From an uncultured Rikenella sp. (GTDB lineage Bacteria; Bacteroidota; Bacteroidia; Bacteroidales; VadinHA17), in the NCBI GenBank assembly GCA_964635655.1, contig CAZWOC010000016.1, positions 28,120 through 92,119 of the forward strand: a stretch of DNA of 64,000 nt. Reading direction: 5' to 3'. Within the stretch, counting starts at the first letter, position 1. Each line of letters starts with the position of its first letter. Shown piece after piece: positions 7,086-60,725 of the stretch. A program made the translations under genes and the position numbers. A model generated the notes under the pieces. It worked only from the letters and a program-made list of their open reading frames with translations, did not search any database and was not told where the DNA came from.

Positions 7086-7088
<3 letters not shown>

Positions 7089-7134
7089 GCAGGCGGTAGA
7101 CAGCAGGCAATAGGCAGCAGGCAACAGGCAGAGG
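7086..7134. repeat. Degenerate tandem heptamer array (GCARYAG-like, about 7 units) starting at the gyrB stop codon
   Basis: Read in 7-nt register: taggcag gcggtag acagcag gcaatag gcagcag gcaacag gcagagg. The short direct echoes ggcagagg and gcaatagg recur at 7188-7195 and 7207-7214. Confidence 0.7.
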
Positions 7135-10947: not shown

Positions 10948-13900
10948 TGATATTTTTTTCTGCAGTTTTTCTTCCGGCCAGGTAGCTGTAAATTGATGGC
11001 ACGACAAACAGTGTAAGGAATGTGGCGAAAAACATACCGCCGACAACTGTCACACCCATTGTGATGCGGCTTTCTGAGCCTGCACCAGTGGCAAGAACCA
11101 GCGGCATGGTGCCGAGTATTGTTGTAAGACTGGTCATGAGTATCGGGCGGAAACGGGATACTGACGCCTCGCGTACCGCATCCATGACGCTCAGTCCGGC
11201 CTGCTGCCTCTGGTTGGCAAATTCAACTATAAGTATTCCGTTCTTTGCAACCATCCCAATCAGCATTATAAGTCCTATCTCGCTGAAAATGTTGAGTGTC
11301 TGGCCAAAGATTACCATTGTTAAGAGGGCTCCGATGAGTGCGAGGGGTACTGTCACAAGGATAATTACCGGGTCACGGAAGCTCTCGAACTGGGCAGCAA
11401 GCACCAGGTAAATGAGTACCAGTGCAAGAATAAACGCAAACAGAAGGCTCGATGTGCTTTCGACAAAGTCCTGTGAGTCACCTGACAAGGCAGTGCTGAA
11501 GTTTTCGTCCAGTACCTTGTCTGCAATCCTGTCCATCTCCTCGATACCTTCACCCAGAGTATGTTTTCCCTCGAGACCTGCCGAGACTGTCGCAGCCACA
11601 AACCTGTTGTACCTGTAAAGTTGCGGCGGGAGGCTGTTTTCCCGTATTTCCACTATGTTGTCGAGCTGTATCAGCTGGCCTCTGTCATTTCTCACATAGG
11701 TACTTGTAAGATCATAGGGGTCATTTCGTTTCGACTTGTCAAACTGGCTGAAAATCTGGTACTGTTTCCCGTCGAGGATATAATATCCGATTCGTTGTTC
11801 GCTCATTGTAAGCTGCAGAGTCTGGGCTATACTCTGCACGTTGACGCCCATCATCGAGGCCTTCTCCCTGTTGATCATGACGGTGAGCTCAGGTTTTGTA
11901 AATTTCAGGTTCACGTCAGAAGCTGAGAAGTAGGGGCTTTCCGATGCGAGTGCCATGAAATCAGGGATTACCCTTTTCAGGTCATTGAGGTTCTTGGCCT
12001 GGATGACGTATTGCACCGGCAGACCCCCGCGACGCGCACCGAAGGTTTGCTGCTGTGATACTATTGTCTGTGCACCGGTGTATTGTCTCAGGACAGGGGA
12101 GAGGGCTTGAGCTATCTCCTGCTGTGAGCGTTTCCGGTCTTCCTTGTCGACCAGCCTGACCCTCATGTTTGCCGAGTTGACGCTCCCCATGCCAACCATC
12201 ATCATTATGTTGTCACTCTCGGGTACCTGTTCCTTAACCACCGGGGCAATCTGATCCATATATGATGTCATATACTCATATGTCGCCCCTTCGGTCGCCC
12301 TTGCATTGATTGTGACATAGCCGCGGTCCTCCAGAGGAGCCATCTCTGAGGGGAGGAGTGACCACATCCATGCAATAAGCCCCCCGGATACAATAATTAT
12401 TATGAACGCCAGGTACCTTTTTTCCAGGAATTTCGTAATTGCCTTACGGTAGAAATTGATCATGCCGGCAAAGAAGGGTTCAGAGAAACGGTAGAAGCGT
12501 CCTTCCATGGCGTTGTGCTTCAGCACCCTCGACGAGATCATGGGTGTGAGTGAAAGAGCCAGGAATGCCGAGATTCCGACAGCGCCAACTATCACAAGGC
12601 TGAATTCCCTGAAGAGCCTGCCGGTGACGCCCTGCAGAAACACGATGGGCAAGAATACAGATATAAGTGCAATTGTTGTCGCGATGATTGCGAAGTAGAT
12701 TTCCTTAGATCCCTTCAGTGCTGCTTCCATCGGTGTCATGCCGTGTTCCACCTTTGTGTAGATGTTTTCCACAACCACAATGGCGTCATCGACAACGAGA
12801 CCGATTGAAAGGACTATTGCAAAGAGGGTCAGGATGTTGATTGTAAAACCGGCAATATACATCACGAAGAAAGCTCCGATGAGTGCGACGGGTATTGCAA
12901 CCACCGGGATGAGAGTTGTTCTCCAGTTCCGGAGGAAGAGGAAAATTACAAGTACAACGAGCATGAAGGCGATAAATATAGTATTCTTTACCTCCTTGAT
13001 CGACTCTCTGATATAAAGTGTATTGTCAAAAAGCACCTCCATCGTAATATCTTCAGGAAGTTCCTTTTCCAGCTGTTTGAGAAGTATCTGCGCATTGTCA
13101 ACGATATCAATGTAGTTGGCTCCCGGCTGGGGTACAAGTACCACGTTTACAGATGGTTTGCCGTTACTAAGAAGGTGGGAGCGTATGTTTTCGGCATCAA
13201 TCTCTGCAACTCCGATATCGCTGAATTTAACAACCCTGTCGCCGTTTTTTGCAATTATCAGGTCATTGAACTCATCTACAGTACGAAGCCTGCCGAGGGT
13301 TCTGATTGTCAGTTCTGTATTATCGCCTTCGATTCTTCCTGAAGGCAGTTCGACGTTTTCCCTGGTTACTGCGGTTCGTACATCGAGAGGGGTGAGACCG
13401 TATGCTGCCAGCCTGGCCGGATCCATTTTCATCCTTATTGCTAGCTTCTTTGAACCCCAGACTGACACTGCACTTACGCCTGAGATAGTCTGCAGTCTTT
13501 CCTTGAAGTTGAGTTCGGCATACTGGCTGACATCAATTATTGACCTTGTGTCGCTCCTGAGTGTTACTGCGAAGATTGGCTGCGCGTCGGCGTCGGCTTT
13601 CTGAACTACCGGAGGATCAACATCCTGGGGCAGGCGGCGCATTGCTCCGGAAACCTTGTCACGGACGTCGTTCACAGCCGTTTCCATGTCAACTTCCAGT
13701 TTGAACTCAACAGTTATGCGTGATGAACCGTCACTGCTTGAACTTGAAATTGAACGAATCCCCTGAACACTGTTTATTGCCGACTCGAGGGGTTCAGTTA
13801 TCTGGGTCTCCATTACATCTGAGTTGGCACCCGGGAAAGAAGTGGATACAGTCACAACAGCCGGGTCAACGCTCGGGTAATCCCTTACGCCGAGGAAAGT

Positions 13901-30935: not shown

Positions 30936-31010
30936 TCGGGATGCCGGGATTTGAACCCGGGGCCCCTTGCCCCCCAGACAAGTACTCTAACCGGGCTGAG
31001 CTACATCCCG
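30936..31010 (-). tRNA. tRNA-Pro (anticodon GGG)
   Basis: The reverse complement folds as a cloverleaf: acceptor CGGGATG/CATCCCG, D-arm GCTC/GAGT, anticodon arm CTTGT-CTGGGGG-GCAAG (U33, GGG, G37), T-arm CCGGG-TTCAAAT-CCCGG, discriminator A. CCA is not encoded. Confidence 0.9.
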
Positions 31011-45203: not shown

Positions 45204-47150
45204 ATGACAGCATCTGAAGCGATTGCCCTGATGAAAGAGTCCGGGGTCACACTTCCTGAGGAGATAAGCCTTATTGCCGGAAGTTCTCCGTCCGCGGTTT
45301 TCTTCAATTCTTCGTCTGAAATCCTTGAAGCTTCGTTTCCCGGCAGGGGAGACCTGACATTCGAAGTTAAATATGACATTCCGGGAAGAGGTGAGGTCAC
45401 GGAAGTAAAGCTTCACCGTGTCACAAACGGGCTATCTGCAAACTATACAGAGCCTTACATGAGACGACGTGACCCGGAGACAATGCTCATCGGTGACGAG
45501 CGGCCGACCGACAAGAGGAGGTTTGAGGATGAATATGGTTATCCTTTTTGCAGGCTGAAGAATGAGACCATTGAATGGCTGAAAGGGCAGGAGGTCGGGA
45601 TGTTCCTCTGTTTTGCAGGCAACTGGCCAATCGGTGCCGGCGGCATTGTTGTAACCCCGCTCAACGCATCGTTTTTTGCTTTCGGGCTATCGCTCCTGCA
45701 GAGGATTATTTCTGTTGATCAGCTACCTGAAGGATTCAGGGTGGAATCTGTCGTCTACGTTGCACCTCCCTTCCGTCACACGCATTTCATGGGACGCCAG
45801 GTTGTTGTACACAACAGGCTTGAAGGTCTTCATGAGATGTTTGCCTATAACCTGTATCCGGGCCCGAGTGCCAAGAAGGGATTCTACAGTGTCCTCCTTG
45901 ACAAGGGAGAGGATGAAGGATGGCTTACAACCCACTGTTCAACGGTTCAGGTTGTGAGTCCGTATGACAACGTGACCACGTTCATGCATGAGGGGGCCAG
46001 CGGGGGAGGCAAGAGCGAGATGATACAAAACATTGTACGTGAGCCGAATGGCCAGATACTGATTGGCCAGAATATAATGACAGGTGAGCGGCGGGTCATA
46101 TCAATCCCGTTCTTCTGTTCGTTTCATCCGGCAACTGATGACATGGCGCTCTGCCACCCTTCTTACCAGAGTAACAACGGCAAGCTGACTGTAGCTGATG
46201 CCGAGAATGCATGGTTCATCAGGGTTGACGGAGTGACCGGTTACGGTGACGATCCGTTTCTTGAAAAGATCACGATCAACCCGGCAGAGCCGTTGCTCTT
46301 TCTGAATATTGACACCAGGCCTGACGGTACGGCATTGATATGGAACCACACGGAGGATTCACCCGGCAAACGGTGCCCCAATCCAAGGGTAGTGCTTCCG
46401 CGAAGGATTGTCCCGGGTGTGATCAACAGACCGGTCACCGTCGATGTCCGCAATTTCGGGGTAAGGATGCCGCCTTGTACAGCAGAGAAGCCCACTTATG
46501 GTATTGCGGGGCTTTTTCATATACTTCCCCCGGCGCTTGCATGGTTATGGCGGCTTGTGAGCCCCCGCGGATATGCCAATCCCAGCGTCACCGGCAACAG
46601 CGATCTCGAGAGTGAGGGTGCAGGGTCATACTGGCCTTTTGCAACCGGTAAAAAAGTACGGCATGCAAACCTCCTCCTGGAACAGATAGTCAATACTCCC
46701 AGAGTCAGATACACTCTGACACCAAACCAGCACATCGGGGCATGGAAGGTGGGGTTCAAGCCACAGCTGCTGATGAGGGAATACCTGACACGCCGCGGCA
46801 ACGCTAAACTCAGGGCAGATCAGCTCAAACCTTCAAGGTGTTCACTGCTTGGATATGAACTCAACTACCTCACAATCGAGGGTTCTCCTGTACCCACCCG
46901 GTTTCTCAAGGTGTACCGGCAGGCAGAGGTGGGTGAAGAGGGCTATGATGCCGGTGCCGCCATTCTCCAGGACTTTTTCCGCAGGGAGCTGGAGGGATTT
47001 CTCTCGCCTGACCTGGCCCCGCTGGGACGAAGGATAATAAATGCCTTCATGGAGGGGTGCACTGTTGAGGAGTACGCCCGGATACTTCCGATGGAATACC
47101 AGTACTCGTTTCTTACGATTAATGACCATAACCAGCAGGGGGCCGTGTGA
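45204..47150 (+). CDS. Uncharacterised 648-aa protein (DUF4914-like) with P-loop and PEP-carboxykinase-like motif order
   Basis: Uninterrupted ORF with the Walker-A-like motif HEGASGGGKSEM. The downstream motifs run in the same order as ATP-PEPCK (see findings). The family name is recalled from memory, not searched. Confidence 0.7.
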   Translation: MTASEAIALMKESGVTLPEEISLIAGSSPSAVFFNSSSEILEASFPGRGDLTFEVKYDIPGRGEVTEVKLHRVTNGLSANYTEPYMRRRDPETMLIGDERPTDKRRFEDEYGYPFCRLKNETIEWLKGQEVGMFLCFAGNWPIGAGGIVVTPLNASFFAFGLSLLQRIISVDQLPEGFRVESVVYVAPPFRHTHFMGRQVVVHNRLEGLHEMFAYNLYPGPSAKKGFYSVLLDKGEDEGWLTTHCSTVQVVSPYDNVTTFMHEGASGGGKSEMIQNIVREPNGQILIGQNIMTGERRVISIPFFCSFHPATDDMALCHPSYQSNNGKLTVADAENAWFIRVDGVTGYGDDPFLEKITINPAEPLLFLNIDTRPDGTALIWNHTEDSPGKRCPNPRVVLPRRIVPGVINRPVTVDVRNFGVRMPPCTAEKPTYGIAGLFHILPPALAWLWRLVSPRGYANPSVTGNSDLESEGAGSYWPFATGKKVRHANLLLEQIVNTPRVRYTLTPNQHIGAWKVGFKPQLLMREYLTRRGNAKLRADQLKPSRCSLLGYELNYLTIEGSPVPTRFLKVYRQAEVGEEGYDAGAAILQDFFRRELEGFLSPDLAPLGRRIINAFMEGCTVEEYARILPMEYQYSFLTINDHNQQGAV

Positions 47151-47252
47151 GCCTCCCGGTCTGATGACAGGCGCCAACAGGAGGTGGGGCATGTGAGCCC
47201 CCCGGTCTGATGACAGGCGCCAACAGGAAGGGGGGCTGTGAGCCCCCCCCCC
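47146..47252. repeat. 45-46-bp tandem repeat (2 full copies plus a partial copy) ending in a C10 homopolymer
   Basis: Copies start with tgtgagcc at 47146, 47192 and 47237. Copies 1 and 2 are identical at 37 of their first 38 positions. The C-run grows from cctccc to C6 to C10 (47243-47252). Copy 1 overlaps the last two codons and stop of the 45204..47150 gene. Confidence 0.85.
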
Positions 47253-54655: not shown

Positions 54656-54753
54656 AAACACCTATCCGGGGTGGTATAAATACCTCTTTTGACAGTGCTC
54701 TGCTTTTCAGGCAAGGTGCTTTGTTTATTTTTGGTTACCCAAAACCAATCGCC

Positions 54754-56037
54754 ATGCTTTTAGCAGTATTCCTGATAGTTTTTTATTTTACGTTTCCGCT
54801 TGTACTGATATGGATGTGCAAGAAATGGAGCATCCTTCAGAAACTGGGGACGATAGTACTTGCATACGGATTCGGACTGATCATCGGTACTGCAGGTTTC
54901 TTCCCTAAGGGCAGTGACGGGTATCGTGCAGCACTGCAGGGTCAGGCTGTAATGAGTACTGCCCGGCTTGACCAGCTGATTGCGGAAGGGAAGGCAGTTC
55001 AGAATGACCGGACTGCAAATAAGATTGCCGGGATACAGGACAAGGTCTACACTGTTTCCCTGCTTGTCGCTTTTCCGCTGCTTCTGTTTTCGCTAAACCT
55101 GAAGAGATGGCTCAAATTTGCGAAGAAGGGTTTTGTATCGATTGGTCTGGCCCTGGTGGCAGGTCTTGTAATGGTTACTGCAGGTTTCTTCATATGGAAA
55201 GACACTTTTCCTGACACATGGAAGCTGGCAGGCATGTTTGAAGGAATATATACCGGCGGAACTCCGAACTTTGCCGCCCTTAAACTAATATTGGATGTTG
55301 ATGCCGAGCGGTTTGTCGTTCTAAATACATATGACATGATCGTGGGAGCCTTCCTGGTGCTGTTCTTTGTGACCGTTGCACCACGGATATTCAGGGCTTT
55401 TCTTCCCAAATTCAAGGAAGAAAAAGGGGCGGTTGTGGATGACGAACTTGTGAAACAGGAGACAGAGGGTCTGGATGATTTTTCAGGCATGCTTGATAAA
55501 CAGCGGGCATGGCCGCTTCTGAGGGCTTTGCTGATGAGTATTATTATAGCCGGTGTCGGAGCTGCCGTCTATTTTCTTATCCCGGTTGAGATGCAGCAAT
55601 ACAGGATGGCCGGGATGGTGCTTACAATTACAACCCTAGGGATACTTGCTTCACTGTACAGGCCTATTAATCAGATAAAGAAGACATTTCAGCTGGGTAT
55701 GTACCTGATACTTGTATTCTCACTTACTGTTGCTTCGATGTCTGATCTGCGGACAATGTTTACAAAAGGAATGATGGACCTGGTTTTATTTATTTCCTGG
55801 TGTTACTTCGGATCCCTGTTCCTTCACATAATACTGGCCAAAATATTCAAGATAGACGCTGATAATTTCCTCATAACAGCCACGGCATTTATTTTCTCAC
55901 CGCCGTTTGTTCCGCTGGTCGCCAATGCGCTTAAAAACAAGGATGTGATTGTAACCGGGATAGCCGGGGGAGTCATTGGCTATACACTTGGCAACTATTT
56001 CGGCACCACTCTTGCATTTTTCCTGGAGCGGTTCTGA
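54754..56037 (+). CDS. DUF819-like polytopic membrane protein
   Basis: About 11 hydrophobic segments. The motif IYTGGTPNFAAL resembles the remembered DUF819 signature (GGS.N.AA). The ATG at 54754 is preferred over the TTG at 54721. Confidence 0.6.
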   Translation: MLLAVFLIVFYFTFPLVLIWMCKKWSILQKLGTIVLAYGFGLIIGTAGFFPKGSDGYRAALQGQAVMSTARLDQLIAEGKAVQNDRTANKIAGIQDKVYTVSLLVAFPLLLFSLNLKRWLKFAKKGFVSIGLALVAGLVMVTAGFFIWKDTFPDTWKLAGMFEGIYTGGTPNFAALKLILDVDAERFVVLNTYDMIVGAFLVLFFVTVAPRIFRAFLPKFKEEKGAVVDDELVKQETEGLDDFSGMLDKQRAWPLLRALLMSIIIAGVGAAVYFLIPVEMQQYRMAGMVLTITTLGILASLYRPINQIKKTFQLGMYLILVFSLTVASMSDLRTMFTKGMMDLVLFISWCYFGSLFLHIILAKIFKIDADNFLITATAFIFSPPFVPLVANALKNKDVIVTGIAGGVIGYTLGNYFGTTLAFFLERF

Positions 56038-56044
56038 CAGGAAA

Positions 56045-56183
56045 GGTCTGAAGGTCCAAAGGTCTAAGGTCTGAAGGTCGTGGATGGCATTAATTTACAT
56101 TACCCCTGACCTTCAGACTTTCAGACCCTCAGACCCTCAGACCTTCAGACTTTCAGACTTTCAGACTTTCAGACTTTCAGATC
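56045..56183. repeat. Inverted arrays of a tandem octamer (4 x GGTCTGAA-like, 27-nt AT-rich spacer, 9 x TTCAGACY) filling a convergent intergenic gap
   Basis: Left arm 56045-56079: ggtctgaa ggtccaaa ggtctaa ggtctgaa ggtc. Right arm 56107-56183: tgacc, then ttcagact ttcagacc ctcagacc ctcagacc ttcagact x4 ttcagatc. 56068-56079 pairs with 56108-56119 over 12 positions, one of them a G-T wobble. The array ends 1 nt from the minus-gene stop codon (56184-56186) and starts 8 nt after the plus-gene stop. Confidence 0.9.
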
Positions 56184-57527
56184 CTAAAACAGAAAGTTGA
56201 GTCCGATATAAAACTCCATGTCGCCGTCCTGTTCCTTCAGCGCCTTGCCGATGTCTGCGGAGATTATGAAGTTTTCGTTCATGACGAGCTTCAGACCGAG
56301 GCCTGCAGCCATGTGAAGTTTATCCTTACCCCCGATGTAATAATCTGCTACGTTTTCTTCACCTTCAAGATAATCTTCCAGGTCATTAACATCCACATCT
56401 ATCAGTGAGGTCACAGCGCATGCATCGAAGAAATAGTTCGTTCCCAGGTACCAGTTCTGGTTTATAAACTTAAACCGGACCATTTTCCAGCGAAGTTCTG
56501 CGTTTCCGTAAGCGAATCCGTCACCGATGACCCTGTTTCTGAGCAAACCTCTGATAGTCTTGCTGCCACCAAGGCCTTCTGAAAGGGCCCCTCTCAGCTC
56601 TGAAACGATAACCTGCCCCTGGTAGTAGAAGGGTACGTCACCGAACAGTGTTTGCTGGTATCCCAGCCTGTAGGCGAAGCTGAGATCGTTCTCCTTGAGG
56701 GTGAAATACTGTCTCCAGGTGAAATAAAATTTTCCGAATGTCGATTCTGCACCAAGGAATTCCGGTACAACCTCTATCCCTGTCTCTGCCCATATGCCGT
56801 CCATGGGGCACGCCCGCTGATCGCGGGAATCAAATGAGATGCCACCCTTTATCCCGGTAATCCAGCCTCCGTCAGCTTCGTCGGATGTCAGCAGCCCTGA
56901 ATTTTTGTAATACCCGTATAGTGTAGGTTCATCCGGATCAAGATATTTGGGATCTTCCGGATCCTTGCCCTTATTGAACTTGTCAACGTTCAGGTCTTTT
57001 ACCTTGAAGTTTTGTATGCTCAGACCGGCATTCCAGTGCCAGTTGTTTTCACCGATATTTCCGATAAAATCATTTTTAAACCGGAAAAGGTGTCTCTGCA
57101 TTGCATAGAAAAGACGACTCCTGTAGTCAGGATTCAATTCGTCATCCACCCATGCCTTATTGTAAACGGATGCAAATCCGTTAAAACCGTAGAAATCATA
57201 TGCAAAATCGGGCATATAACTCAGGTCGACAGCATACCTGATCCCCTTGATGAGGTAGTCGGAGTCATACATCACCCTGAGGATAGAGCTTCCCTTTGTG
57301 AAGGTCGAAGCTTCAACATAAATTCTATGGTAATAGTCGGGGTATATTGATCCGTCACCGTAGTCGAACAGGTTAACCAGTGCTCCGTACTGAAATCCCT
57401 GGTCAGTGCTGTAGGTGACGGCGGGCAGAGCTCCGAAGTTCCACCCTGTCTTGGTCTCCTGGGCCATCATGGATGTGGTGAGGAGTCCGGCAATCATGAT
57501 AAAAGTGAGTTTTTTCATAGGTTTCAT
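56184..57527 (-). CDS. Outer-membrane beta-barrel protein, Omp85/BamA-like surface-antigen family without POTRA (tentative)
   Basis: Signal peptide (MKPMKKLTFIMIAGLLTTSMMAQ). Alternating beta-strand pattern with the C-terminal barrel signature EFYIGLNFLF. Confidence 0.6.
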   Translation of the reverse strand: MKPMKKLTFIMIAGLLTTSMMAQETKTGWNFGALPAVTYSTDQGFQYGALVNLFDYGDGSIYPDYYHRIYVEASTFTKGSSILRVMYDSDYLIKGIRYAVDLSYMPDFAYDFYGFNGFASVYNKAWVDDELNPDYRSRLFYAMQRHLFRFKNDFIGNIGENNWHWNAGLSIQNFKVKDLNVDKFNKGKDPEDPKYLDPDEPTLYGYYKNSGLLTSDEADGGWITGIKGGISFDSRDQRACPMDGIWAETGIEVVPEFLGAESTFGKFYFTWRQYFTLKENDLSFAYRLGYQQTLFGDVPFYYQGQVIVSELRGALSEGLGGSKTIRGLLRNRVIGDGFAYGNAELRWKMVRFKFINQNWYLGTNYFFDACAVTSLIDVDVNDLEDYLEGEENVADYYIGGKDKLHMAAGLGLKLVMNENFIISADIGKALKEQDGDMEFYIGLNFLF

Positions 57528-57618: not shown

Positions 57619-58860
57619 ATGAGCCTGATCATATATAATACGGGAATGCTGGTGCAGACCAGGGAAGAGCATGTGGCTTTCACTGCTGGTAAGGATATGG
57701 CTGTTCTGCCTGTGATTGAGAAGGGATGGCTTTTGATAGAGGATGGAATCATTGCAGGTTTCGGCCCTCCGGATACAATGCCTTCATTCAGCAATGCAGT
57801 TCCCGGGCTTGACGCCGGAGGCGGATTCGTGTTCCCTTCATTCTGTGATCCGCACACTCACCTTGTATATTCCGGAAGCAGGGAGAAAGAGTACACAGAC
57901 AAGATACGCGGGCTGTCATACGAAGAGATAGCAAAGAGGGGAGGAGGCATCCTGAACTCCTCAAAACTCCTGCATGATACATCAGAGGATGAGCTCTTCC
58001 GGCAGTCGATGGAAAGAGTCAGGGAGATCATTTCTACCGGCACCGGTGCCGTGGAGATAAAGAGCGGGTACGGCCTGACAACCGAAGATGAGCTTAAAAT
58101 GCTCAGGGTAATAAGGAGGATAAAGGAGTCATCGCCTCTGACCATCAGGTCGACTTTTCTCGGGGCGCATGCAGTGCCGGCTGAGTACCGTGATAACCGG
58201 AAGGGATATGTAGACCTGATTGTTGACGAAATGATTCCTGCCGTAGCTGCCGGGCGGCTGGCTGATTATATTGACGTTTTCTGTGACCGGGGATTCTTTA
58301 CAGTGGAAGAGACTGCCCGCATTCTCGAGGCCGGCGCACGACACGGCATGCGCCCGAAAATCCATGCCAACGAGCTCGACTTCTCAGGCGGGATACAGAC
58401 AGGAGTTAGGCACGGGGCACTTTCAGTTGACCACCTTGAGTTCACCGGTGACGATGAGATAGCGGCGCTGCTGGGAAGCGGAACAATGCCTACACTGCTG
58501 CCGGGAGCTGCCTTCTTCCTTGGCATGACTGACCCGCCGGCAAGGAAGATGATTGATGCAGGACTGCCGCTTGCGATGGCAAGTGACTACAACCCCGGCT
58601 CATCACCCTCAGGTAATATGAAGCTGGTTGTCTCACTGGGGTGCATCAGACTCCGGCTTCTTCCTGAGGAGGCGATAAATGCCGTCACAATTAATGCGGC
58701 TTATGCCATGGGCCTTTCTGAAACGCACGGATCAATCACTGTGGGCAAAAAGGCGAATCTGTTCATTACGAAGAAGATACCTTCATACGAGTATTTACCC
58801 TATGCATATGGCAGTCATCTGGTGAAACATGTCATTTTGAATGGGGAGATTTATAATTGA
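57619..58860 (+). CDS. hutI: Imidazolonepropionase
   Basis: Amidohydrolase metal motifs CDPHTHLVYSG, KIHANEL, VDHLE and ASDYNPGSSP. 413 aa. Confidence 0.92.
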   Translation: MSLIIYNTGMLVQTREEHVAFTAGKDMAVLPVIEKGWLLIEDGIIAGFGPPDTMPSFSNAVPGLDAGGGFVFPSFCDPHTHLVYSGSREKEYTDKIRGLSYEEIAKRGGGILNSSKLLHDTSEDELFRQSMERVREIISTGTGAVEIKSGYGLTTEDELKMLRVIRRIKESSPLTIRSTFLGAHAVPAEYRDNRKGYVDLIVDEMIPAVAAGRLADYIDVFCDRGFFTVEETARILEAGARHGMRPKIHANELDFSGGIQTGVRHGALSVDHLEFTGDDEIAALLGSGTMPTLLPGAAFFLGMTDPPARKMIDAGLPLAMASDYNPGSSPSGNMKLVVSLGCIRLRLLPEEAINAVTINAAYAMGLSETHGSITVGKKANLFITKKIPSYEYLPYAYGSHLVKHVILNGEIYN

Positions 58861-59027
58861 GTTATCGGTTATCGGTTATAGGTTATCGGTTATTTAGGAA
58901 TTGACTTTGACAAACTGACAACCGGTAACCGACAACCGACAACCGATAACCGACAACCGACAACCGATAACCGACAACCGACAACCGACAACCGATAACC
59001 GACAACCGACAACCGATAACCGATAAC
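58861..59027. repeat. Inverted arrays of a tandem heptamer (5 x GTTATCG-like, 24-nt spacer, 15 x AACCGAY) filling the entire hutI-ftcD spacer
   Basis: Left arm 58861-58895: gttatcg gttatcg gttatag gttatcg gttattt. Spacer 58896-58919. Right arm 58920-59024: aaccggt, then aaccgac/aaccgat units with a 21-nt gac-gac-gat super-period. 58861-58877 is perfectly complementary to 59011-59027 (17 nt). Confidence 0.92.
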
Positions 59028-59030
59028 ACT

Positions 59031-60725
59031 ATGACTTCAAACCGACTAATTGAATGTGTTCCCAACTTCAGCGAGGGGCGCGATATGGAAAAAATAAAGC
59101 AGATCACCGATGAGATTGCATCTGTAGAAGGCGTCATGCTGCTTGACATCGACCCGGGAAGGGATACCAACCGTACTGTGGTGACCTTCGTGGGTGAACC
59201 TGAGGCAGTGTGTGAGGCCGCTTTCAGGGCAGTCAGGAAGGCTGCACAGGTCATTGACATGTCGAAACATACAGGCGCCCATCCCCGCATGGGAGCAACG
59301 GATGTTTGTCCGCTTGTACCCGTCTCGGGTGTGACGATGGAGGAGGCTGCCGGGTATGCCCGGGGGCTTGCACGAAGGATAGGTGACGAGCTTTCACTGC
59401 CAGTATACTGTTATGAGTCAGCCGCCTTTACGGAGATCAGGAGAAATCTGGCAAACGTCAGAGCAGGGGAGTACGAGGGGCTGAAGAAAAAGCTGGAAGA
59501 TCCTGCATGGAAGCCCGACTTTGGGCCTGCCCGCTTTGATGCAGGTGCGGGGGCTGTGATTGTGGGAGCGCGCGATTTCCTTGTGGCGTTTAACGTAAAC
59601 TTAAACACTACTTCAGTCCGGAGGGCAAATGCAATCGCCTTTGATGTCAGGGAACGCGGCCGTGAAAAACGTGAGGGCAATCCAATCACCGGCAAGGTGG
59701 TAAAGGACCCGGAAGGTAATCCTGTCATGATACCCGGAACACTTAAATCGGTAAAGGCAATAGGCTGGTATATACCCGAATACGGCTTTGCGCAGATATC
59801 AATGAACCTTACAAATATAGGAGTGACCCCGGTCCATGTTGCTTTTGACGAGGTATGCAGGAAGGCAGAGGAGCGCGGTGTTCGTGTTACAGGCTCGGAG
59901 CTGGTGGGACTCATTCCGCTTAATGCGATGCTTGAAGCCGGAAGATATTTCCTCCATCGTCAGCAACGCTCGGCCGGTGTCCCGGATGAAGAACTGATAC
60001 GGACTGCTGTAAGGTCGATGGGTCTCTCGGAGCTGAAACCATTCAATCCTGAAGAAAAGATCATTGAATATATATTAAAGGATAAGCATAAAAAGAAGCT
60101 TGTTGATCTCTCCCTGGCCGCATTTGTTTGGGAGACCTCATCAGAGTCACCTGCACCGGGCGGCGGATCCGTCGCAGCCACTATGGGTGCTCTTGGGGCA
60201 GCCCTGGGCACGATGGTAGCCAACCTCTCGGGACACAAGAGAGGATGGGATGACCGGTGGGATGAGTTTGCCGCATGGGCTGAGAAGGGAGTGCTGTTAC
60301 AGAAGCGTCTCCTTGAGCTGGTGGATGAGGATACAGAGGCATATAACAGCATCCTCAGCGCTTTCGAACTGCCAAAGAAGACAGAAGAGGAGAAGGCTGT
60401 CAGGGCTGCAGCGGTGGAGGCCGCAACCCTTAATGCTTCACTTGTTCCGTTGACAGTGATGAAGGAGGCTTTTAAAGTCTTCGACCTCCTGAAGGAGATG
60501 ACTGAAAAGGGCAATCCTAATTCTGTAACTGACGGCGCTGTTGGCGTGCTTGCAGTCAGAGCATGCATCAGGGGTGCATTTTTGAACGTAAAGATAAATG
60601 TCAAGGGGCTGAAGGACAGGGCAAGGGCAGAGGAACTGACTGCAGAAGCCTGTGAAATTGATAATAAGGCTGCAGCCATTGAAGCAGAGATAATTGAACG
60701 GGTGTCTAAAACCCTTGCATTGTAG
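59031..60725 (+). CDS. ftcD: Bifunctional glutamate formimidoyltransferase / formimidoyltetrahydrofolate cyclodeaminase
   Basis: The N-terminal motif LIECVPNFSEGRD is diagnostic of formiminotransferases. The C-terminal roughly 200 aa form an all-helical cyclodeaminase-like domain (SSESPAPGGGSVAA). Confidence 0.9.
   Translation: MTSNRLIECVPNFSEGRDMEKIKQITDEIASVEGVMLLDIDPGRDTNRTVVTFVGEPEAVCEAAFRAVRKAAQVIDMSKHTGAHPRMGATDVCPLVPVSGVTMEEAAGYARGLARRIGDELSLPVYCYESAAFTEIRRNLANVRAGEYEGLKKKLEDPAWKPDFGPARFDAGAGAVIVGARDFLVAFNVNLNTTSVRRANAIAFDVRERGREKREGNPITGKVVKDPEGNPVMIPGTLKSVKAIGWYIPEYGFAQISMNLTNIGVTPVHVAFDEVCRKAEERGVRVTGSELVGLIPLNAMLEAGRYFLHRQQRSAGVPDEELIRTAVRSMGLSELKPFNPEEKIIEYILKDKHKKKLVDLSLAAFVWETSSESPAPGGGSVAATMGALGAALGTMVANLSGHKRGWDDRWDEFAAWAEKGVLLQKRLLELVDEDTEAYNSILSAFELPKKTEEEKAVRAAAVEAATLNASLVPLTVMKEAFKVFDLLKEMTEKGNPNSVTDGAVGVLAVRACIRGAFLNVKINVKGLKDRARAEELTAEACEIDNKAAAIEAEIIERVSKTLAL

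Follow-up and report, generated by a model that had tools for sequence, protein, structure and literature searches.

Complementary and hypervariable heptamer arrays fill the hutI-ftcD spacer of an uncultured Bacteroidales bacterium

The stretch of DNA analysed here (the window) comprises 64,000 nucleotides of an uncultured Rikenella sp. of the order Bacteroidales (contig CAZWOC010000016.1 of assembly GCA_964635655.1, positions 28,120 to 92,119). Our analysis centers on the spacer between two co-directional genes of the forward strand, hutI (57619-58860), encoding an imidazolonepropionase of 413 aa, and ftcD (59031-60725), encoding a formiminotransferase-cyclodeaminase of 564 aa. The original prediction had named both genes, and these identities held. 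In Pfam, the hutI-like open reading frame (ORF) matched only the general amidohydrolase families Amidohydro_1 and Amidohydro_3; its close database homologues, which are 86-99% identical at the protein level and come from metagenome-assembled genomes (MAGs) of uncultured Bacteroidales, some labelled Rikenella or Rikenellaceae, carry the source name imidazolonepropionase. The ftcD product contains the domains FTCD_N, FTCD and FTCD_C with E-values of 1e-61 to 1e-72. Two arrays of 7-nt units, complementary to each other and separated by a short loop, occupy the spacer. We show here that this spacer is a hypervariable complementary pair of simple-sequence arrays, and that it belongs to the class of intergenic heptameric and octameric long simple-sequence repeats (LSSRs) that lie near or overlap the 3' ends of genes.

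Using Tandem Repeats Finder (TRF), the short arm was delimited to 58861-58893 (+ strand; period 7, 4.7 copies of GTTATCG, 92% matches, score 59). Its first base follows directly upon the hutI TGA stop codon (58858-58860), which agrees with the stop-adjacent GTTATCG-type heptamers originally reported. The units occur in the order GTTATCG, GTTATCG, GTTATAG, GTTATCG, GTTAT, and the arm is G/T-rich in the mRNA sense. An A/T-rich loop of 19 nt (TTAGGAATTGACTTTGACA, 58894-58912) leads into the long arm at 58913-59027 (+ strand; period 7, 16.4 copies of AACCGAY with AACCGAC as the unit, 88% matches, score 174), which ends 3 nt before the ftcD ATG (59031). These limits revise three of the earlier figures: the long arm begins at 58913 instead of 58920, once the two degenerate units at its head (AACTGAC and AACCGGT) are included; the A/T-rich segment measures 19 nt instead of 24; and the gap to the ATG is 3 nt instead of 6.

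The long arm is composed of 43% A, 37% C, 15% G and 6% T. Its self-identity is 96.3% at a lag of 21 nt and 95.9% at 28 nt, compared with 92.6% at 7 nt and 90.8% at 14 nt; hence the higher-order 21-nt rhythm that had been proposed for this arm is real. AACCGAY dimers occur 17 times in the window against a chance expectation of 0.05, and all 17 lie within the hutI-ftcD spacer. Over their outermost 17 nt, the two arms complement each other perfectly, as had been stated, and an inverted-repeat search (pairs I1-I17) also paired the arms, in agreement with TRF and the fold statistics. The loop sequence, in turn, was confined to the hutI-ftcD locus in contigs of the host species within the 1.4 Mb that we examined. 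Stop codons are present in all six frames of the spacer, which is non-coding, as had been stated. A 135-aa antisense ORF (58883-59290) was considered as a coding candidate and rejected; it consists of antisense ftcD plus array and is not conserved in relatives. An Rfam scan of the whole window, judged at the gathering score, returned a tRNA (30936-31010) as its sole match and none at the arrays.

Folding of the spacer RNA, a check that the original prediction had called for, gave a minimum free energy of -49.8 kcal/mol, as compared with -27.3 +/- 3.1 kcal/mol for 200 dinucleotide-preserving shuffles (z = -7.2), none of which folded as well. The proposal that the entire spacer closes into one long hairpin held up in part: the fold is strong and can adopt many registers, but the arms are asymmetric (5 vs 16 units), so that only about 33 nt can pair at once and approximately 80-100 nt of the long arm are left single-stranded. 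The predicted shape is thus either a stem of 33 bp that encloses a very large loop or any one of numerous shorter registers. In the predicted ensemble, the short arm is 87% paired and favors the last units of the long arm (58990-59027), since its exact complements are found there; only the last three to five long-arm units are predicted to be paired, and the units at 58927-58989 are 63-84% unpaired. In the minimum-energy register, the partners of the short arm are the units adjoining the ftcD ATG. Accordingly, the suggestion that the structure could occlude the ftcD start finds support in the predicted accessibility of the region from -20 to +10, where the mean unpaired probability of 0.29 is the second lowest among 43 genes (median 0.45).

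The arrays are not an artefact, although the original prediction had allowed for a lack of support in the raw reads. A metagenome scaffold from the European Nucleotide Archive (ENA; L001/L007 in our numbering of loci) is collinear with the window across 9 kb with a single mismatch, and both this element and a second one described below are identical in it base for base. Logan unitigs from six other sequencing runs reproduced the array edges and then broke inside the arrays, as is expected of k-mer assemblies. Moreover, MAGs of relatives hold analogous arrays at the same site, and several of these MAGs are probably derived from long reads, judging from contig names and sizes. A metagenome scan with the hutI-array junction matched one contig, from the sister lineage L011, and yielded no further strains of the host species.

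A second element with the same architecture and 8-nt units lies 2.7 kb upstream, as originally noted, in the spacer between two convergent genes. Its left arm (56043-56079, + strand; 4.8 copies of AAGGTCTG) begins 5 nt past the stop codon of a DUF819 gene (54721-56037, + strand, assigned by Pfam), and its right arm (56108-56181, + strand; 9.2 copies of GACYYTCA), which is complementary to the left arm, lies 2 nt from the stop codon of an Omp85-family gene (56184-57527, - strand).

To place these elements among relatives, we collected hutI loci from 80 species, each with 10 kb of flanking DNA on either side (1.4 Mb in total), and ran TRF throughout; the intergenic status of arrays was taken from crude gene calls, and the 20 loci with HutI at least 77% identical are referred to as the close clade. 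Periods of 7 (67 arrays) and 8 (35 arrays) dominated. Arrays with units of 6-9 nt were intergenic in 87 of 107 cases, while intergenic DNA makes up only about 16% of the sequence, and many began between -31 and +5 nt relative to a stop codon. Neighbouring arrays were mutually reverse-complementary in 8 of 33 cases, as compared with 3.3% for random pairs of arrays of equal period. These analogous and inverted arrays bear out the argument that the elements represent a class and not a chance occurrence. Within the close clade, 42 of the 48 arrays with 6-9-nt units were localized to a pair of orthologous spacers, the hutI-ftcD one in 17 loci and the DUF819-Omp85 one in 11, and six were found elsewhere; about 2% of the other spacers carry an array. 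Of 16 close relatives, 14 have an array after hutI; among 58 distant ones, the number is 10. By gene orientation, arrays were present in 13 of 37 convergent, 16 of 171 co-directional and none of 31 divergent spacers of the close clade. The counts of 3'-end association were dropped as independent statistics because the two orthologous spacers dominate them.

Unit sequences at these sites are far from constant. The clade uses at least 15 unit families, which differ even at the same spacer. At hutI-ftcD, the GTTATCG / AACCGAC-type family of the window is shared by L011, L016, L020, L023, L092 and L093; AAATCGC units are found in L012, L014, L015 and L031; AGGCAGT after the stop together with GACTTCA-type units before the start in L019, L021 and L022; and AGGTTTAT in L026 and L027. 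The comparison of orthologous loci thus shows that two spacers have retained arrays even as the units themselves were exchanged. The expected variability between strains was evident at short range: L092, whose hutI is 98.5% identical to that of the window at the DNA level, has a short arm of GTTATCG GTTATTA GTTATCA, an unrelated loop, and another pattern of variants in its long arm, within which the contig ends. In the sister lineage L093 (hutI DNA 84% identical), about 11 long-arm units are rich in AACTGAC and the short arm is rich in GTTATCA. The pairing of GTTATCA with AACTGAY in L093, and of GTTATCG with AACCGAY in the window, indicates that the two arms changed together. A lineage with 93% HutI identity (L011, and independently L091) retains eight degenerate units. 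Judging by these comparisons, the arrays evolve much faster than the flanking genes, and the arm-loop-arm layout persists in the GTTATCG sub-lineage.

In many relatives (L012, L014, L015, L019 and L021-L023; proteins P0006-P0060), the hutI ORF itself runs into the array, adding variable tails of 5-19 aa such as SNHTSHIANRNSQIS and FSRQSAGGSPQQC after a conserved ...VILNGE(I/V) end; the arrays therefore generate protein-tail diversity. The longest array, 32 copies of AGTCGGC over 245 nt (L015, 8200-8444), sits in the orthologous DUF819-Omp85 convergent spacer. L020 (11348-11470) and L023 (2470-2602) have a C-rich array, a G-rich GTTATCG array and another C-rich array in succession; either neighbour is a possible partner for the middle arm, so that the alternative hairpins exclude each other as in an attenuator. 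In the hutI-ftcD spacer of L026 and L027 (about 11254-11410), a short AGGTTTAT array is followed by GC-rich hairpins that replace further heptamers. It is worth recording that the L026 hairpins are three copies of AACCCCGAAGGGG(T/G) with the look of a repetitive extragenic palindromic (REP) or terminator-type sequence, and that L033 and L034 (71% HutI identity, no downstream ftcD) have arrays of 16-19-nt units (AGTGAGCTAAAGTGACTAA-type) located 8-82 nt after hutI.

The arrays are polarized in composition relative to the genes that they adjoin. Among those within 15 nt of a stop codon, G exceeded C in the gene sense in 26 cases vs 6, and among those within 15 nt of a start codon, C exceeded G in 16 vs 4. 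At -30 to -1, the ordinary upstream sequence of the clade is likewise low in G (16%, with 35% A); ordinary post-stop regions have no G/C skew.

A scan for sigma-70 promoter and terminator consensus sequences gave counts at chance level and no site in either spacer, and was replaced with a clade-specific analysis of the Bacteroidetes -7 box, TAnnTTTG. In the close-clade loci and the window, this box occurs at 2.76/kb upstream of genes vs 0.20/kb in coding sequence, a 14-fold enrichment, and lies mostly 11-35 nt ahead of the start codon. Most genes would hence have short leaders, unlike the 170-nt array-filled spacer before ftcD. No exact TAnnTTTG was found in 16 orthologous hutI-ftcD spacers (2.3 kb in total), and ftcD is therefore most likely translated from the hutI-ftcD transcript. 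The absence of the box thus suggests that ftcD is probably co-transcribed with hutI, in line with the bicistronic mRNA originally envisaged. The loop in the window does contain a copy with one mismatch, TGACTTTG, which may act as a weak internal promoter.

A third array, made up of GCAGGCA/ATAGGCA heptamers (7089-7131, + strand), starts at the first base after the TAG stop codon (7086-7088) of gyrB, a gene assigned by its Pfam gyrase B match; no inverted partner was found for this array. Its AGGCAGT-type unit is also the one that follows hutI in L019, L021 and L022, and further loci of relatives have it as well, which indicates that unit families are common to unrelated spacers. The arrays are not a general trait of gene boundaries in this genome, being present in only 3 of the 43 spacers of the window. 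Aside from these, a 46-nt unit, which is not of the heptamer type, is repeated 2.5 times at 47137-47248 (88% matches, TRF score 182) between the convergent genes for a DUF4914 protein and a class I/II aminotransferase, and each copy contains a G6...C6 hairpin, AGGGGGGCATGTGAGCCCCCC.

The novelty that the original prediction had attached to the class did not withstand comparison with the literature, in which both inverted arrays near stop codons (PMC4692102) and heptamers near start codons (PMC4679880) had already been described. The general class of LSSRs goes back to Mrazek et al. (2007, as cited in PMC4692102 and PMC4679880). Among its members, (GGGAATC)n of Xanthomonas and (GGGGAYT)n of Nostoc form intergenic heptameric simple-sequence repeat (SSR) arrays with head-to-tail 7-nt units (Rehm et al., 2015; PMC4692102). 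In Xanthomonas, about 90% of the arrays are intergenic, positions very near or overlapping the upstream stop codon are strongly favored, 70-75 "tandemly inverted" convergent pairs per genome are capable of forming stem-loops, and the arrays are transcribed and keep the same gene neighbours in related species while varying in length and sequence (PMC4692102). The hutI-ftcD element resembles these arrays in every one of the following respects: it has 4.7 and 16.4 head-to-tail 7-nt copies, far beyond chance and inside the 5-11-nt range of units of the class; it is intergenic and directly follows the upstream stop codon, with the arrays of relatives overlapping the end of hutI; the same genes flank variable arrays in 17 of the 20 close loci; and its arms form an inverted, stem-forming pair. 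On present evidence, the hutI-ftcD arrays are a further instance of a described phenomenon and not a new system.

There are also differences. Xanthomonas and Nostoc each use essentially one G-tract unit of the G-quadruplex (G4) type, whereas the Bacteroidales clade has at least 15 families of 7 and 8 nt that lack G-runs; GGG is absent from GTTATCG, AACCGAY and AAGGTCTG, which places the window units outside the G4 subclass of Rehm et al. and led us to reject a G-quadruplex reading. No strand preference relative to genes has been reported for the Xanthomonas and Nostoc arrays, in contrast to the gene-sense polarity of the clade. Within our limited sampling, the arrays of the clade are concentrated in a few persistent spacers, compared with about 100-200 sites in Xanthomonas and Nostoc. 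Finally, the asymmetric hutI-ftcD pair differs from known arrays by bridging a stop codon to the next start within a probable operon.

Direct repeats of the heptamer TAACTGA, described from Beggiatoaceae, cyanobacteria and five Bacteroidetes, are mostly intergenic and "forward" in orientation and end a few nt before start codons (MacGregor, 2015; PMC4679880). Some sets overlap the end of the upstream ORF, and the Bacteroidetes examples are long and mixed with other heptamers, with contigs often ending inside them; one heptamer dominates, there are 2-6 copies per set in Beggiatoaceae, and only one inverted set was reported from the BOGUAY genome (PMC4679880). The long arm in the window is likewise "forward" and ends 3 nt before the ftcD ATG, and related AACTGAC units are present in the clade (one in the window at 58913, three to four in L020 and L093). 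The main unit of the window is AACCGAY, however, so this array is not a TAACTGA direct repeat. We group the short tandemly repeated repetitive (STRR) heptamers of cyanobacteria with the TAACTGA repeats as a further likeness.

An experimental precedent exists in Haemophilus influenzae, where (ATCTTTC)n in the transcribed 5' untranslated region of the phase-variable hmw1A/hmw2A contributes about 10 repeats as one arm of a hairpin that is cut by RNase III, and hmw1A expression falls with rising repeat number (Rapun-Araiz et al., 2025; PMC12721329). Among experimentally supported models for how the hutI-ftcD element could work, hmw1A is the closest. The comparison is to be read with its differences in mind: at hmw1A, the opposite arm is G-rich and non-repetitive and the gene encodes a surface adhesin under host selection, whereas at hutI-ftcD both arms are arrays and the position is intercistronic in a probable catabolic operon. 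Here, the hairpin is predicted, transcription of the spacer is deduced from the missing promoter box, and copy number differs between strains and species but is identical in the same-strain replicate.

REP sequences are intergenic, often within operons or between convergent genes and near stop codons, and their stem-loops can stabilize upstream mRNA; they consist of a conserved palindrome of about 35 nt in hundreds of dispersed copies mobilized by RAYT transposases. The clade elements resemble the REP sequences and bacterial interspersed mosaic elements (BIMEs) of enterobacteria as stop-proximal intergenic stem-loops in intra-operon or convergent positions. They differ in that each locus builds its stem from tandem units of its own, and no sequence is common to different loci.

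The explanation that we favor, with a probability of roughly 55% for the account as a whole, is that of a slippage-born LSSR pair acting as an intercistronic stem and leader. Slippage during replication, affecting single units as well as 21/28-nt blocks, would have given rise to the arrays and altered them, and the complementarity of the arms would be kept by template switching between them or by selection for pairing. Transcribed within a hutI-ftcD bicistronic mRNA, the G/U-rich short arm would pair with about 5 of the 16 A/C-rich units to form a duplex of approximately 33 bp right after the hutI stop codon, and this duplex might act as a barrier that stabilizes the 3' end of hutI, or as a site at which RNase III processes the mRNA between the two cistrons. 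What is left unpaired of the long arm would constitute a G-poor, AUG-free and weakly structured leader for ftcD, suited to the Shine-Dalgarno-independent ribosomes of Bacteroidetes. Initiation in this phylum depends on low mRNA structure and an A at position -3, not on a Shine-Dalgarno sequence (PMC6847099); position -3 of ftcD is an A. The pairing register and the number of units would then set the degree to which the ftcD start is occluded, and a change in copy number would tune the hutI:ftcD expression ratio.

Several observations weigh against this account. Every functional step in it is inferred. The near-clonal second assembly has identical arrays and is uninformative on copy number within the population. 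Two orthologous spacers, counted in many species, account for most of the 3'-end association in the close clade, and divergent spacers of distant relatives are not clearly free of arrays (7 of 97). The antisense RNA of the hutI-ftcD spacer (58850-59040) folds better than the sense RNA (-68.2 vs -49.8 kcal/mol), as it also does at the second element (56030-56195), where the - strand RNA reached -78.1 kcal/mol vs -63.6 for the + strand. In both elements the cause lies in transitions between unit variants: where one strand can form G-U pairs, the other has A-C mismatches. Concerted evolution at the DNA level, and not selection on the mRNA, may hence underlie the pairing. As for the orthologous spacers, five fold clearly beyond their shuffles (z of -3.0 to -6.2), namely the window, L011, L020 and L023 of the GTTATCG lineage and L027 with its GC-rich hairpin; L016 (-2.3) and L026 (-2.2) are marginal, L031 reaches -1.1, and eight spacers with other units have z values of 0 or above, two of them near +3. 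Since about half of the orthologous spacers lack excess folding, the stem is not a conserved requirement at hutI-ftcD. The more constant feature across these spacers is a G-poor array reaching the ftcD start.

The same data feed the main rival, which we consider somewhat unlikely and to which all other rivals are inferior: the arrays may be a self-perpetuating neutral satellite, that is, functionless slippage products seeded at gene 3' ends and left to drift, with selection only removing harmful versions such as G-rich or structured sequence before a start codon, or arrays in promoters or coding sequence. This would account for the complete turnover of units between species at the same spacer, for the many orthologous spacers without hairpin potential, for the change of loop and unit variants within 1.5% hutI DNA divergence, for the stronger antisense fold, and for the low number of array-bearing spacers in the window; G-depletion before starts is moreover clade-wide and not array-specific. 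Yet two given spacers bear arrays in 17 and 11 of 20 loci, vs about 2% elsewhere, and this can hardly be accounted for unless selection or a very strong mutational bias at these sites is assumed. Neutral drift also fits poorly with the excess of G over C in stop-adjacent arrays (26 vs 6), given that ordinary post-stop sequence is unskewed, and with the inverted pairing of neighbouring arrays at about seven times the chance level.

An improbable alternative is that the elements are hairpin-dependent terminators or attenuators that lack a U-tract and perhaps require a factor, with DUF819-Omp85 working bidirectionally and hutI-ftcD partially, thereby lowering ftcD relative to hutI. Both inverted pairs in the window do start 0-5 nt past a stop codon, one of them between convergent genes; the stems are long and stable; the C-rich/G-rich/C-rich layout of L020 and L023 permits mutually exclusive hairpins; and the 115-nt C-rich, G-poor long arm resembles a Rho loading site, as such sites are generally understood. 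However, no T-run was found after either stem on either strand of the two inverted elements, and, with no promoter box for ftcD in any of the 16 spacers, efficient termination would silence the next step of the pathway. Many orthologous spacers have arrays without a hairpin, and most other convergent spacers in the window have no array. The element is not a Rho-independent terminator, as had been recognized at the outset: the stem is there but the U-run is missing, and the consensus scan detected no terminator-like site in either spacer.

Still less probable is that the units are bound by a protein that recognizes nucleic acids (for instance a cold-shock protein, ribosomal protein S1 or an unknown reader) and make up a post-transcriptional regulon of the kind proposed for the TAACTGA repeats. 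Like most TAACTGA sets (PMC4679880), the long arm is "forward" in orientation, at a distance of 3 nt from the ATG; AACTGAC-related units appear in the first long-arm unit of the window and in L011, L020 and L093, and start-adjacent arrays are consistently A/C-rich and single-stranded. That unit families number at least 15 within the clade, with differences even at one spacer, argues against a single sequence-specific reader; the arrays are rare genome-wide, and no candidate protein was identified. [quoted passage not shown]

Three further identities were set aside. A dispersed element of the MITE/REP type was rejected on the same grounds, as copies of the whole element were not found elsewhere (loop, 1.4 Mb; arrays, the 64-kb window). 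A CRISPR array had rightly been dismissed before, the units being contiguous and 7 nt long and not repeats of 24-48 nt with unique spacers. The third was the HutP-type antiterminator site, which is heptamer-periodic, (UAG-N4)n, and part of the Bacillus hut operon; (UAGGCAG)n is indeed what the AGGCAGT arrays that follow hutI in L019, L021 and L022 spell out. The window units have no periodic UAG and the AGGCAGT unit also follows gyrB (7089), and we take the resemblance as a coincidence.

Among the long simple-sequence repeats of bacteria, heptameric ones are the most over-represented, and their bias toward stop codons has been on record since 2007-2015. To our knowledge, a function has been assigned to them only at a few contingency loci of pathogens. 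The locus described here adds a Bacteroidales case in which two spacers keep their arrays across species despite the turnover of units, together with a gene-sense polarity (G-rich after stops, G-poor before starts) and asymmetric complementary arms that span a stop codon to the next start in a probable operon. The clade hence provides a clean comparative handle on the question of why heptamer arrays gather at bacterial stop codons, and this combination of features renders the explanations by a neutral satellite and by an expression rheostat directly testable. In its strongest form, which we hold to be doubtful, the latter states that, in the Bacteroidales clade studied here, arrays of 7-8-nt units at a few fixed spacers would be selected cis-regulatory rheostats: the G/U-rich arm past the stop and the A/C-rich arm ahead of the following start would form a duplex of sliding register that would be processed by RNase III or act as a barrier, the gain or loss of units would reset its geometry and with it the expression ratio of the flanking genes, and the unpaired A/C-rich units would provide a Shine-Dalgarno-independent leader. 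If this is true, heptamer SSRs would represent a general, evolvable device for post-transcriptional tuning in non-pathogenic environmental bacteria, and the long-noted excess of heptamers near bacterial stop codons would be explained.

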